DNA of 8,644 nt from a virus. Lineage: Duplodnaviria; Heunggongvirae; Uroviricota; Caudoviricetes. Every line of letters starts with the position of its first letter. Within the stretch, counting starts at the first letter, position 1. The notes beneath the pieces are model-generated. The model ran no database searches. It was not told where the DNA came from and saw nothing but the letters and a program-made list of their open reading frames with translations. The position numbers were made by a program, and so were the translations under genes. Below, one piece after another: positions 3,550 to 8,644 of the stretch. The stretch lies in the IMG/VR virus record IMGVR_UViG_2734482535_000008. One strand, 5' to 3'.

Positions 3550-3933
3550 TGGTGCCTACCCCTCAATCATGATGAAACCCACCGCGCCGCCGTAGAGGCG
3601 CGACCATTTCAGCACGTCATTCAGCGCATCCCAGATTTGCAACTCATCCAGTTGTGATTCGAGAATGCCACGATCTTTTGCATCAATTTCCGAAGTGATG
3701 CGAATGCCTTTGCGGGTCATATCATCCGGGATAGCATCGACTGCTTCGCCGATGATCTAGGATGAACGATAGGACCATTCCACCAGCATGCGGTTACGAC
3801 TGGTGAAATTAGCCCGGTAGGTGGATGCTGAGTGCTGGTTAGGTGTCTGCATCCCTACGCGGGCAATAAAATTCTCATAACCATCAGCTGTGGCCTGCAC
3901 AGTTCGCCGCAGGGCTTGTTTGTTTCGTGCCAT
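2467..3933 (-). pseudogene. Full-length portal reading frame (489 codons) interrupted by two in-frame TAG codons at 3759-3757 and 3558-3556
   Basis: My manual minus-strand translation from ATG 3933-3931 (overlapping the terL TGA as ATGA) gives MARNKQALRRTVQATADGYENFIARVGMQTPNQHSASTYRANFTSRNRMLVEWSYRSS*IIGEAVDAIPDDMTRKGIRITSEIDAKDRGILESQLDELQIWDALNDVLKWSRLYGGAVGFIMIEG*AP, then the MTPLRPETIGKG ORF, all in one frame. 489 codons is a normal portal size. Confidence 0.65.
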
Positions 3934-5363
3934 CAGGCCTGTCTCCCCAGCTGTTCCCAGATATCCAGCGATGTATCGATTGGCGCGAAGGCCATAATGA
4001 ATGCATCAGCAACGTTTGGTGACGGTATCTCGCGTTTTGCGAGGTCTTTTTTACTTTCGACCATCACACGTCCGTTACGGTCGAAATCACGATGAGGTGT
4101 TGTCAGTTCCAGTTTCAGCTTTTCAAGCAACGGACAACGAGAATCTATGCTGATCAGCTCATCCACAGGATACTGTTCTCCGTTGTTAATGGCGTTAAAC
4201 GTATTTCTGAAACGGTCAGCCACCAGCCACCATGCCTGAGCCTTAAGATTTGCGAAAAAGTCTTTGTTGGGGATGCCGTTGTACTCGTCATCTGGCTCAT
4301 GCACACCAGCACCGGCGTTAAACCTCTGGTAATTCACACGTCGCGCGTATGCGTTCTCGCTCTTCCGGTCAGCGTTAATTTCAGAGAATTTAGCACCGGC
4401 AGACGCACCAACACCGATAGAGTCGTAAACAATATCTGCTTCACGCTCCAGCGCCGCCTGATAAGTACGCTGGCAGCTCTTCAGTAATTCATCTTCTTTG
4501 GCCTTCCATTCGTCGGCCCAGAAAACAACGGATCCGTGACGGTAAACGTTAGCGCACTTATCTGTACCACTGTCAGCCACGTCAAAGCCAATACGCTTTC
4601 TTCCACTGGGTTCGAAATTTAACGTTTTGTGCGCATCCACTGCGGCTTCTATCCAAGACAGTTTGATGATTGCCGCATCATCATCAGACTCCGGAACGCC
4701 CTCATACACATGTTTAAAACCATCCGGATCACGGCGTCGCGCCGCGTCGATAACCTTAAGCATGGTGTCAGACAGAAACGGATTTTCGTCATAGTTAATT
4801 TTGCGGATGAGAGTGCCTTCGGGCGGATCAACAACGAAGTTGCGCCAGACGAAATCAGTAACAAGTCCGGGGTTGAATATGAACCAGCATTCCGAACCCT
4901 CTTTACGGATCGTTGGCTCCAGAATTTTCCACTGGTATTCCGTCAGTGCGTGGGCTTCTTCCAGCCACAACACATCGATCCCCTCCAGTGACTTAATTTC
5001 TTCGATGTTGCGCCATAATCCATAAAAAACAAATTCCGAGCCAGTAACCCGGTTAATGATTTTGTTGTTCAGAATACGGAAACGGTGCCGCAGACCAAAC
5101 CTGTCTATCTGAATTTTGAGCAGGGTATACACCGACTCTTCGATTTTATTCTGGATCTGACGGGCACAACAAAAACGCAGGGTGTATTTATTCGACAGAA
5201 ATATGGCAATGCCAGCGGCATCCCATGATTTTGACGATGACCGACCACCATAAAGCACTTTGTTACGTGCCCGCATAGTCCAGAAACTACGTAAAGCCGG
5301 ATTCAGCGTCGGTTTGGATGTCAGAGTAGAAGTCATTGAGGTCACGCTCTCCATTGCCATCAT
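3933..5363 (-). CDS. terL: Phage terminase large subunit (PBSX / Terminase_3-type ATPase-nuclease)
   Basis: N-terminal Walker A-like KVLYGGRSSSKSWD and a downstream LWLEEAH Walker B-like/DExx segment. The ORF is open to 5444, where the track used a TTG start. I prefer ATG 5363 (AGGT 5-8 nt upstream); ATG 5336, 5354 or 5375 are also possible. All overlap the terS 3' end. The stop overlaps the portal ATG. Confidence 0.88.
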   Translation of the reverse strand: MMAMESVTSMTSTLTSKPTLNPALRSFWTMRARNKVLYGGRSSSKSWDAAGIAIFLSNKYTLRFCCARQIQNKIEESVYTLLKIQIDRFGLRHRFRILNNKIINRVTGSEFVFYGLWRNIEEIKSLEGIDVLWLEEAHALTEYQWKILEPTIRKEGSECWFIFNPGLVTDFVWRNFVVDPPEGTLIRKINYDENPFLSDTMLKVIDAARRRDPDGFKHVYEGVPESDDDAAIIKLSWIEAAVDAHKTLNFEPSGRKRIGFDVADSGTDKCANVYRHGSVVFWADEWKAKEDELLKSCQRTYQAALEREADIVYDSIGVGASAGAKFSEINADRKSENAYARRVNYQRFNAGAGVHEPDDEYNGIPNKDFFANLKAQAWWLVADRFRNTFNAINNGEQYPVDELISIDSRCPLLEKLKLELTTPHRDFDRNGRVMVESKKDLAKREIPSPNVADAFIMAFAPIDTSLDIWEQLGRQA

Positions 5364-7317: not shown

Positions 7318-7811
7318 TGCTGCCCCCACAAACAGACTTCACGCTCAATCTCACGACGGGTCATCAGCCCTTTCCATTGCTTACCGCCAGCATATGTCCA
7401 GCGACATAGCTGGTCACATGCGCCTTTGATATAGCCCTGGTTTATTTTGCGAAGAAGCGTCGATGTTCTGAAATTGCCAGCGCCCACGTTGTAAACGAAC
7501 GAGTAAAGAGCGCCGCGCGTTGTTTCCGGTATATCGACTTTGATGTACGGGTTAATTTGTCTGGCGACAGTGGCAAGGTCTTTATTCAGGAGGGCTTTGC
7601 ATTCTGCTTCGGTATACGTTTTACCGAGCATGATGTCTTTTCCGGTGTGTCCGTGACATACAGTCCATACACCAATGATATCTTTGTATGGTATGTAGCT
7701 GACACCTTCCAGACCATCGTTACCACCTGGGCCAGTGATTAACACAGATGCTATAGCAACAGCCCCACCACCAATAGCAGCTGCAACAGCCTTGCGTAAT
7801 GATGGCGACAT
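7314..7811 (-). CDS. R: SAR endolysin (phage 21 R-type lysozyme, T4-lysozyme / GH24 fold with N-terminal signal-anchor-release domain)
   Basis: Near-identical to my memory of phage 21 R: Gly/Ala-rich SAR segment [20 protein letters not shown] followed by [25 protein letters not shown] carrying the Glu/Asp/Thr catalytic positions. ATG overlaps the holin stop (TAATG). Confidence 0.92.
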
Positions 7812-8026
7812 TATTCACCTCTCGCAGCCTTACGCTTGTCTTCTCTTATTTTGAAATACAGATTTGTCAGATAAGTCAGAAGCCCCAGAAGCAGACTTCC
7901 CAGCACACCAATCGCAGCCCACTGTGATGGACTGACCTGATCCAACCACTGCAAAAACCAGTAGCCGGCACTGCCGGCGGAGGTGCCGTAGGCAATGCCT
8001 GTTGATATTTTTTCCATCTGATACAT
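7811..8026 (-). CDS. S: Class II pinholin (phage 21 S21-type) with dual-start motif M1-Y-Q-M4
   Basis: [71 protein letters not shown] closely matches S21 68/71: two transmembrane domains and a charged C-terminus. Two in-frame ATGs three codons apart, at 8026 and 8017. Confidence 0.92.
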
Positions 8027-8056
8027 ATCCCGCCCCCCGACAGACCTGTGCTATCG

Positions 8057-8093
8057 GAAAGAAAAAAGGCCATCAGCAAAACTCTGATGGCCT
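8057..8093 (-). terminator. Rho-independent terminator on the minus strand, about 30 nt upstream of the holin start (tR'-like late-leader terminator)
   Basis: Perfect 9-bp inverted repeat GGCCATCAG (8068-8076) / CTGATGGCC (8084-8092) with a 7-nt loop. On the minus strand it is followed by TTTTTTCTTTC (complement of 8067-8057). Confidence 0.7.
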
Positions 8094-8137
8094 GAATCAC
8101 CTTTACCAATATTGTATGAAAAAACACGCACGACTAA

Positions 8138-8166
8138 TTGACAATAATTTTCATTTCCATTAAAAA
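8138..8166 (+). promoter_or_regulatory. Candidate sigma70 promoter on the plus strand (TTGACA-N17-TAAAAA)
   Basis: Consensus -35 TTGACA at 8138-8143, 17-bp AT-rich spacer, then TAAAAA (4/6 match to TATAAT). Sequence-only prediction. Confidence 0.25.
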
Positions 8167-8201
8167 AGATCGCGTAGCATTCTTAATTCATGAGGAACTT
8201 T

Positions 8202-8268
8202 ACCCGCCAGCAATCTGAGTAGCGAAAGCTGTTCATCCCCAATGTTTTTGCTGGCGGGTCCTTTTTTC
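8202..8268 (+). terminator. Long-stem hairpin plus T-tract, terminator-like on the plus strand (possible 3' end of a small antisense RNA)
   Basis: Perfect 12-bp inverted repeat ACCCGCCAGCAA (8202-8213) / TTGCTGGCGGGT (8248-8259) around a 34-nt spacer, followed by CCTTTTTTC (T-run 8262-8267). The minus-strand orientation has no U-tract after the stem. Confidence 0.4.
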
Positions 8269-8570
8269 TACGGTCCTCCTCCCCGGAGGGGGGCATTTCA
8301 TTATTTTTCTAATCGTTACTGGTGAGAAGGCGGAAGAAAAAGCCAGTTCTTCGCCCCTAAATAACAGCATGATTCCAGTCCATGCAAAATCTGATTTCCA
8401 GCTCACACATACCGAGCGCTGTACAAAAAACCGCCAGCCAAGGCAGTTAAGAGTGTGTTCCCGGGGTTTGCTTAGAATATTTTGTAAGTTGTCCGAAGAG
8501 ATATTTACAACACCAGAATGATGCATTATCAGTCCCCTGCCAGAGGTTCACTACGTAACCTGACCGACAA

Positions 8571-8644
8571 TGAAGTGGCACACTGAATTTGGCCACCTGA
8601 ACAGAGGTGATATGCTCACCTCAGAACAACACAGGTGCTCCAAT
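8571..8644 (+). mobile_element. IS911 (IS3 family) left end, 74 bp; element continues beyond the window end, with the orfA ATG beginning at 8642
   Basis: 8571-8644 reads TGAAGTGGCACACTGAATTTGGCCACCTGAACAGAGGTGATATGCTCACCTCAGAACAACACAGGTGCTCCAAT, which I recognise as the IS911 left inverted repeat and orfA leader. It has the IS3-family terminal TGA. Recognised from memory. Confidence 0.82.

Follow-up and report, generated by a model that had tools for sequence, protein, structure and literature searches.

RyhB is, to our knowledge, the sole Fur-controlled small RNA known so far in E. coli. Like RyhB-2/IsrE, it has a Fur operator over its promoter, a length of about 90 nt and an intrinsic terminator with a U tail. 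Further small RNAs are carried by prophages and islands. Tree et al. 2014 (PMC4104026) reported convergent small-RNA genes downstream of PR', some of them antisense to the late/stx transcript. AsxR and AgvB (RF02703/RF02702) are encoded in this moron region and are antisense to the same transcript; both are expressed in the lysogen, and AsxR feeds into haem-iron use (PMC4104026). PasA and PasC (EcOnc51/52) are Hfq-dependent prophage small RNAs of EPEC/EHEC (Pearl Mizrahi et al. 2021; Zhu, Shabalina & Storz 2026 preprint; PMC8550237, PMC13192938), verified in EPEC by Northern blot and RIL-seq (PMC8550237 Table S6; PMC13192938). Esr41 (RF02676), a small RNA of an EHEC island, adjoins iha and represses cirA, chuA and bfr (PMC5286369).

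Here we describe a candidate small-RNA gene on the plus strand of a phage-derived stretch of 8,644 nucleotides (the window), located upstream of the lysis cassette, which is encoded on the minus strand (Table 1). With a probability of about 0.6, we consider the unit to be a Fur-repressed small-RNA gene of ~95 nt carried on mobile elements, whose product would base-pair with its targets, chiefly in trans and probably with the help of Hfq. The unit belongs with known kinds, namely the small RNAs of prophage cargo slots and those controlled by Fur, and does not form a new category; it is widespread and unannotated and is linked to iron systems associated with virulence.

Table 1. Features of the unit and its surroundings (window coordinates).
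Feature	Position	Strand	Evidence or remark
-35 hexamer TTGACA	8138-8143	+	direct read; 0/6 columns variable, 9/9 alleles
Fur box	8139-8158		7-1-7 form TGACAATAATTTTCA 8139-8153; 19-mer GACAATAATTTTCATTTCC 8140-8158
-10 hexamer TAAAAA	8161-8166	+	imperfect: last position not T
Predicted small RNA, ~92-98 nt (~95)	8172-8269	+	both ends predicted
Terminator hairpin, large-loop	8202-8259	+	outer 12-bp stem encloses inner hairpin and 12-nt 3' bulge
T6 tract (RNA U tail)	8262-8267	+	CC between stem and T6
Second G+C hairpin, then T-rich stretch	8273-8294	+	terminator scan; poorly conserved
Intrinsic terminator, late-gene strand	8093-8067	-	10-bp stem and TTTTTTCTTT; terminator scan
Class II (S21-type) holin gene, first of lysis cassette	8026-7811	-	ORF list; RefSeq annotation of 99.7%-identical loci
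Lysozyme gene	7811-7314	-	followed by Rz, then terminase genes
IS3-family element end	8571 to window end		cuts region

Comparison with described small RNAs

No Rfam family matched positions 7700-8644 at E <= 1, and none reached its gathering score anywhere in the window; a control search of Sakai Sp5 worked, recovering STnc100, AsxR and AgvB (anti-sRNA 88 bits). A covariance model, R1, was built from six alleles of the unit and used in a search space of 143 kb, where it scored the window at 125.6 bits.

PasA and PasC occupy the same kind of slot, in which a cargo gene, a reversed small RNA, a late-strand terminator and a class II holin gene follow one another in the same orientation. These correspond to the unit at 8138-8269 (+), the terminator at 8093-8067 (-) and the holin gene at 8026 (-) in the window, and to PasA at 2700->2616 (-), a terminator and the holin gene at 2914 (+) in locus L075. 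The likeness extends to the TTGACA -35 hexamer, to a length of ~80-95 nt and to a terminator whose arms carry GCCAGCA and whose unusually large loop contains CGAAAG. In contrast, alignment z-scores were insignificant (0.7/-0.7 with the window allele, 1.2/0.7 with the CFT073 allele), R1 found nothing in L075 or L076 at E <= 10, and the PasA/PasC promoters are without a Fur box. The host range differs as well, the present unit occurring mainly in ExPEC, APEC, Shigella and on ColV plasmids. Neither sequence alignment nor the covariance model supported homology to PasA/PasC.

Esr41 resembles the unit in being a short island-borne RNA with a TTGACA promoter, a terminator of the form CCGCC(A/G)GCA...UGCUGGCG and a link to iron homeostasis. 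Since Esr41 represses cirA, chuA and bfr and adjoins iha, a connection with iron is not without precedent among these RNAs. The two differ in that no Rfam Esr41 match was found at E <= 1 (gathering score 102 bits), R1 scored Esr41 at only 15.4 bits, fourth in rank among chance-level matches (E ~1), the terminator loop is ~30 nt longer here, the Esr41 seed UUUUCUCCAU is absent, and the Esr41 promoter is without a Fur box. Sakai Sp5 carries a paralogue of Esr41, an unannotated unit (L007, 10205->10082) antisense to late genes. Its promoter TTGACAATAAGAACTGTTTTCATTAAAAA (TTGACAATAA...TTTTCATTAAAAA) is nearly the same as that of the window, its RNA gives a sub-threshold Esr41 match (28 bits, E = 0.005), and it is the best non-self match of R1 (21 bits). 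The EcOnc table of Tree et al. has no entry at this paralogue, at either its current or its estimated older coordinates. These sequence likenesses hint weakly that the unit may be distantly related to Esr41, its terminator loop having expanded, as distinct from being a member of that family.

With RyhB the unit shares the Fur operator over the promoter, the approximate length and the intrinsic terminator with a U tail, and by analogy it would be expected to be induced on iron starvation. It differs from RyhB in sequence and structure, giving no Rfam match, and in being accessory and mobile, RyhB being core. AsxR and AgvB share the moron-region position and the antisense orientation but are 51-60 nt long with a conserved 42-nt 3' part, compared with ~95 nt here, and RF02703/RF02702 gave no match. 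An identity with PapR was rejected, as the PapR primers map to a different, Sp5-type sequence.

Architecture of the plus-strand unit

The initial annotation had read, from the sequence, a TTGACA -35 hexamer, a 17-bp spacer, TAAAAA, a perfect 12-bp stem with a 34-nt interior and a T6 tract, and all of these are present at the positions in Table 1. The spacer between the hexamers is ATAATTTTCATTTCCAT (17 nt), and the arrangement TTGACA-N17-TAAAAA occurs once in the window and in 0/200 shuffles. The -10 hexamer lacks the highly conserved final T, a position that varies in Nissle. The first stem arm begins after a gap of 35 nt. The arms ACCCGCCAGCAA (8202-8213) and TTGCTGGCGGGT (8248-8259) pair perfectly over 12 bp, eight of them G-C, and form the single inverted repeat of 11 nt or more within 60 nt in the entire 8,644 bases. 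On the plus strand the 34 nt between the arms fold back on themselves as an 8-bp inner hairpin (8216-8223/8228-8235) with a GAAA loop.

Folding of 8170-8270, a check proposed in the initial annotation, was carried out for both strands. The plus-strand RNA gave -31.6 kcal/mol (z = -3.6), with 0/200 shuffles as stable; for the minus strand z was -2.3, and the inner helix is not formable there. A U tract follows the hairpin on the plus strand only, and two inner G-U pairs likewise pair on that strand only. The G+C-rich stem and U tract of an intrinsic terminator are thus present on the plus strand alone, with an interior of 34 nt in place of the short loop (3-8 nt) typical of such terminators. 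A terminator with an interior of this size is unusual, and PasA provides a precedent for a large-loop terminator in the same slot. Both automated scanners had skipped the unit, the promoter scanner because the -10 is without its final T and the terminator scanner because the interior exceeds its loop limit of 8 nt. Judged from the promoter and the T tract, the RNA would start at 8172-8176 and end at ~8267-8269. The hairpin at 8273-8294, in which 80% of cells are paired across alleles, is possibly a back-up terminator.

A minus-strand promoter called by the scanner at 8328-8300 was rejected as unconserved, relatives having an indel and substitutions there. A minus-strand transcript starting near the Fur box would run into the terminator at 8093-8067. 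No conserved plus-strand ORF was found 3' of the unit. A 63-aa ORF predicted by PGAP across the unit was discarded as a gene because its reading frame is broken in other alleles, as was a 10-codon ORF at 8190-8222, which is poorly conserved and without a Shine-Dalgarno sequence. Given that the U tract, the G-U pairs, the promoter and the Fur box all point to the plus strand, the best reading of the unit is that of a small-RNA gene complete in itself. No sequence matching the unit was found in the Shigella M90T TSS supplement, and a search of the searchable literature by RNA sequence returned no relevant paper.

A Fur box over the promoter and Fur occupancy in CFT073

The Fur operator was absent from the initial annotation and is newly recognised here. 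The palindrome matches the 7-1-7 Fur motif TGATAATNATTATCA at 12/14 positions and the 19-bp consensus at 14/19. It overlaps the core promoter, as in Fur-repressed small RNAs, and is placed to occlude the plus-strand promoter. A consensus match of at least 15/19 appeared in 0/300 shuffles of the intergenic region, and a 7-1-7 match with at most two mismatches in 5/200 shuffles of the whole window. The boxes of relatives score 16/19 (L002, L003 and L004), 17/19 (L013) and 15/19 (L071), the window's own being the weakest among the alleles. By our own count, 14/19 falls within the range of boxes accepted in PMC7157518, e.g. ireA and mchB (Table S5B).

In the homologous unit of CFT073, the first base of the -35 hexamer is position 3,440,893 of NC_004431.1. 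Banerjee et al. 2020 (PMC7157518, Table S5A, parts 1 and 6) list a Fur ChIP-seq peak at 3440893 with an amplitude of 3620, assigned to 'c3597 transposase'; the published peak coordinate and the first -35 base coincide exactly. Comparison with the other rows in parts 1 and 6 places this peak among the strongest Fur peaks there, above chuA (3245), entS/fepD (3485), fepA (3285), cirA (3050) and entC/fepB (2860). The name c3597 is absent from the text and the other tables of PMC7157518, the peak is undiscussed there, and the CFT073 RNA-seq analysis in that study covered annotated genes only. In vivo occupancy by Fur is documented for the promoter of the CFT073 allele alone.

Conservation among alleles

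The conservation set comprised nine distinct alleles, whose flanks differ by 12-15%. Across these, the -35 hexamer is invariant and 4/17 spacer columns vary. The -10 shows one substitution (TAAAAG, in Nissle) and a 1-nt difference in the length of the A run, and CATTAAAAA is kept at the -10 in all alleles but Nissle. Directly 3' of the -10, five of six columns are variable, and in the flanks 35 of 57 (promoter core versus flanks, Fisher p = 0.0003). Within the RNA, variation touches 4/40 paired columns versus 18/56 unpaired ones (p = 0.014), and none of the six T6 columns in the nine aligned alleles; a copy outside this alignment (L008) has T5 in place of T6. The outer stem has 10/12 pairs that never vary and the inner stem 6/8, among the latter the two invariant G-U pairs, which would be C-A on the minus strand.

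No compensatory base changes were found in the stems of the nine alleles, because the stems hardly vary. Two outer-stem variants favour opposite strands and cancel out. With G8210A (ColV allele) the pair becomes A-C on the plus strand and U-G on the minus strand; with A8212G (allele L051) it becomes G-U on the plus strand and C-A on the minus strand. Allele L071 has lost the two outer pairs of the inner helix, uncompensated.

Comparison of the alleles shows that stem, T tract and both promoter hexamers are under selection. Together with Fur binding in CFT073, this backs the initial proposal of a self-contained plus-strand unit of promoter, hairpin and T6 yielding an RNA of ~95 nt. The allele diversity is shallow (about six alleles, all from Escherichia/Shigella or their plasmids), and for this reason the conservation could partly reflect recent spread.

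Genomic context and spread on mobile elements

The terminator at 8093-8067 sits between the small-RNA promoter and the holin gene and is an internal late-operon terminator, not tR'. In L001, a relative that is 99.7% identical and free of the IS3 insertion, Q (7490-7861) and the holin gene (3862-4077) lie ~3.4 kb apart, with a methylase (DNA methyltransferase) gene and four tRNA genes between them. A lambda-type late leader is found directly downstream of Q and pR', which is not where the unit lies. As pR' and tR' would be near Q, the label of a 'late leader' upstream of tR' and the holin gene, given in the initial annotation, is wrong; the claim stands in so far as the unit is antisense to late read-through. 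The unit is found in the cargo ('moron') region of the late operon, which in Stx phages accommodates stx, and is oriented like iss/bor, the textbook example of a cargo gene expressed in the lysogen.

The 206-nt region is present in 1427/5426 complete E. coli genomes, with 643 of its places on plasmids, and on 574 plasmids in PLSDB, mostly conjugative (Escherichia 531, Klebsiella 21, Salmonella 17, Shigella 5). Among GTDB species representatives, real matches were confined to E. coli and Shigella, and no copy was found in the phage GenBank collection. Nothing is annotated beneath the unit save a 63-aa 'hypothetical protein' in some genomes.

CFT073 carries an L003-type allele in the pheV pathogenicity island, flanked by remnants of IS3/Rz' and of ISL3 and ~8 kb from iha. 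In Nissle (PAI-pheV) the unit is ~5 kb from shiF-iucABCD-iutA (aerobactin), and on a Salmonella Kentucky ColV plasmid it lies between iss and iroBCDE (salmochelin). The holin and lysozyme genes are deleted in CFT073, Nissle, many other chromosomes and ColV-type IncF plasmids, and mismatches have built up in the late-strand terminator; in these copies the promoter, Fur box, hairpin and T6 are intact. In the remnants L003 and L004 the counterpart of the 8093-8067 terminator has decayed and the plus-strand unit is intact.

Search for pairing partners

Duplex energies and segment scans yielded no convincing trans target. When the two conserved single-stranded segments were compared with the window, the CFT073 island and a ColV plasmid segment, the cis-antisense sites alone stood out. 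A role as a RyhB sponge was rejected, whole-molecule duplex z-scores reaching only -1.4 to -2.3, with the G+C terminator stems contributing most of the energy. A possible 5'-tail pairing with FnrS was also dropped, as the majority allele has UUAUUUCA instead of UUAAUUCA, which would break the pairing.

Alternative explanations

An unlikely account is that there is no functional RNA gene, the hairpin and T6 being just an insulating terminator against stray plus-strand transcripts and the Fur site an orphan or decaying operator that accompanies iss/bor-type cargo. It would fit the strains checked, in which no transcript was shown, as well as the weak -10 and the shallow allele diversity; moreover, many ChIP peaks are non-regulatory, 57 operons having been assigned to 349 peaks in CFT073. 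However, the hexamers, their spacing and the Fur box are conserved while the surroundings change, and the box is placed exactly between the -10 and a perfect -35, an arrangement typical of classic Fur repression. The CFT073 peak is not marginal among the rows in parts 1 and 6 of Table S5A, and in the island and plasmid contexts there is no upstream plus-strand gene that would need such a terminator.

The remaining two explanations tie the element to the late transcript. The initial annotation had suggested a cis-antisense regulator of late and lysis expression; pairing or collision upstream of the holin gene would then tune lysis. The RNA is fully complementary to late read-through RNA ~150-240 nt upstream of the holin start, this RNA provides the sole outstanding duplex partners in the local scans, and Fur control could link lysis to iron supply. 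As the main function this is nevertheless quite improbable, since the unit survives complete after loss of the lysis genes: promoter and Fur box are preserved in PAI-pheV and on the 574 plasmids, which lack the holin and lysozyme genes and in which the late-strand terminator is degraded. In addition, the holin ribosome-binding site lies outside the paired region, a strong late-strand terminator intervenes, and the analogues PasA/PasC and AsxR/AgvB are trans-acting. The same persistence, in places where late transcription is impossible, counts against a minus-strand structure in the late transcript, be it the leader pause or Q-related structure suggested in the initial annotation or a processing or stability element. 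The 12-bp stem does form on either strand, and G8210A of the ColV allele preserves pairing (U-G) on the minus strand alone. Yet no U tract follows the stem on that strand, the inner helix has two C-A mismatches there, the L051 change keeps pairing on the plus strand only, and Q and pR' are ~3.4 kb away in relatives; we regard a minus-strand role as highly improbable.

Proposed function and implications

The reading that we favour, a Fur-repressed small-RNA gene, suggests the following course of events. The putative sigma-70 promoter, with its perfect -35, 17-bp spacer and TAAAAA -10, would be occupied by Fur-Fe(II) across the operator when iron is present and thereby shut. On iron starvation it would be released, and transcription would proceed on the plus strand from near 8172-8176 to the large-loop terminator formed by the 12-bp stem and U6. 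The predicted RNA has the build of an Hfq-type small RNA, with a conserved single-stranded 5' tail, a terminator hairpin and a U tail, and its targets in trans would most probably be mRNAs or small RNAs of the host or the island. Pairing with the late read-through transcript would be unavoidable and may be a by-product or a secondary role.

It is possible, at somewhat less than even odds, that E. coli and Shigella have, in this unit, a second Fur-controlled small RNA alongside RyhB, one that is horizontally mobile. If so, it would account for an orphan but very strong peak of Fur ChIP-seq signal in CFT073. The virulence of extraintestinal E. coli depends centrally on iron acquisition. An RNA of this kind would travel with prophages, the UPEC pheV island and ColV plasmids, near aerobactin, salmochelin, iha and iss, and would tie mobile elements to the iron-starvation response of the host, e.g. 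by retuning siderophore and receptor expression or, alternatively, by acting as a sponge for a core small RNA, in the manner of its neighbours AsxR and Esr41. A post-transcriptional layer would thus be added to the accessory iron regulon, and support would grow for the emerging view of the pre-holin cargo slot of lambdoid prophages, home also to PasA/PasC, AsxR/AgvB and Esr41-like RNAs, as a nursery of regulatory RNAs.

Coding potential of the candidate small-RNA unit

In some genomes the candidate plus-strand small-RNA unit is crossed by an annotated protein, WP_000502162.1. Its 63-aa reading frame is broken in the window allele, in the CFT073-type allele and in the ColV allele, so the annotation is probably an error and the gene beneath it one for a non-coding RNA. 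The predicted RNA itself contains a 10-codon ORF, MRNFTRQQSE, which is not preceded by a Shine-Dalgarno sequence and carries several non-synonymous changes among the alleles, although G8210A, the stem change of the ColV allele, leaves the encoded peptide unaltered. The ORF is probably not translated.

Features in and around the unit and at related loci
Feature	Location	Strand	Remark
Strong intrinsic terminator	window 8067-8093	minus (late-gene strand)	directly upstream of holin gene
10-codon ORF MRNFTRQQSE	window 8190-8222	plus	inside predicted RNA
G+C-rich hairpin GTCCTCCTCCCCGGAGGGGGGC, then ATTTCATTATTTTT	window 8273-8294	plus	directly after T6 of unit
Second terminator-like hairpin, AACTGCCTTGGCTGGCGGTT + TTTTTT	window 8429-8448	minus	
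IS3-family insertion sequence end (TGAAGTGGCACACTGAATTTGGCCACC...)	window 8571-8644		splits cargo region
63-aa "hypothetical protein" WP_000502162.1	L002 (another locus carrying the unit) 4100-4291 and equivalents	minus	RefSeq/PGAP call across unit in some genomes
Unannotated unit in Sakai Sp5	L007 (Sp5 control locus) 10082-10205 = NC_002695.2 about 1,272,081-1,272,204	minus	

Similar and duplicated units

The unannotated unit in Sakai Sp5 has a promoter, TTGACAATAAGAACTGTTTTCATTAAAAA, nearly identical to that of the window unit, and its Fur-box match reaches only 11-12/19. Its RNA is Esr41-like (RF02676 match, 28 bits, below gathering), and the unit itself runs antisense to the late genes and is located upstream of both ECs_1210/1211 and the holin. 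No entry at its coordinates was found in EcOnc, the small-RNA table of Tree et al.

On the IMG/VR contig L015, a 540-bp segment equivalent to window 8033-8572, taking in the whole unit, occurs twice (1-540 and 1281-1820, 1280 bp apart). Two copies each are also present in S. flexneri SFBU1023 and E. coli ECMA0423, and the doubled copies in all three look like IS-mediated rearrangements.

Carriers of the window allele are Shigella flexneri and a small number of E. coli. In relatives without the IS3 insertion, the cargo region runs on into the genes for four tRNAs (Gly, Thr, Arg and Ile), a DNA methyltransferase and Q.

Neighboring terminators and hairpins

The terminator-before-holin layout of the window is also found in loci of PasA, an Hfq small RNA of EPEC/EHEC prophages. 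In remnants on islands and plasmids from which the lysis genes are gone, this late-strand terminator gathers mismatches, while the plus-strand unit is intact there.

The stem of the G+C-rich hairpin is poorly conserved, with a G-run length that differs among copies, and the hairpin may be a back-up terminator or without consequence. The second terminator-like hairpin and the stem of the candidate have the CCGCCAGC motif in common. R1, the covariance model built from six alleles of the unit, gave a weak match (15.7 bits) on the minus strand of L002 (4887-4955), approximately 600 nt beyond the unit, counting from the holin. In this region the CCGCCAGC motif may be the hallmark of a family of related terminators or of 3' ends of small RNAs.
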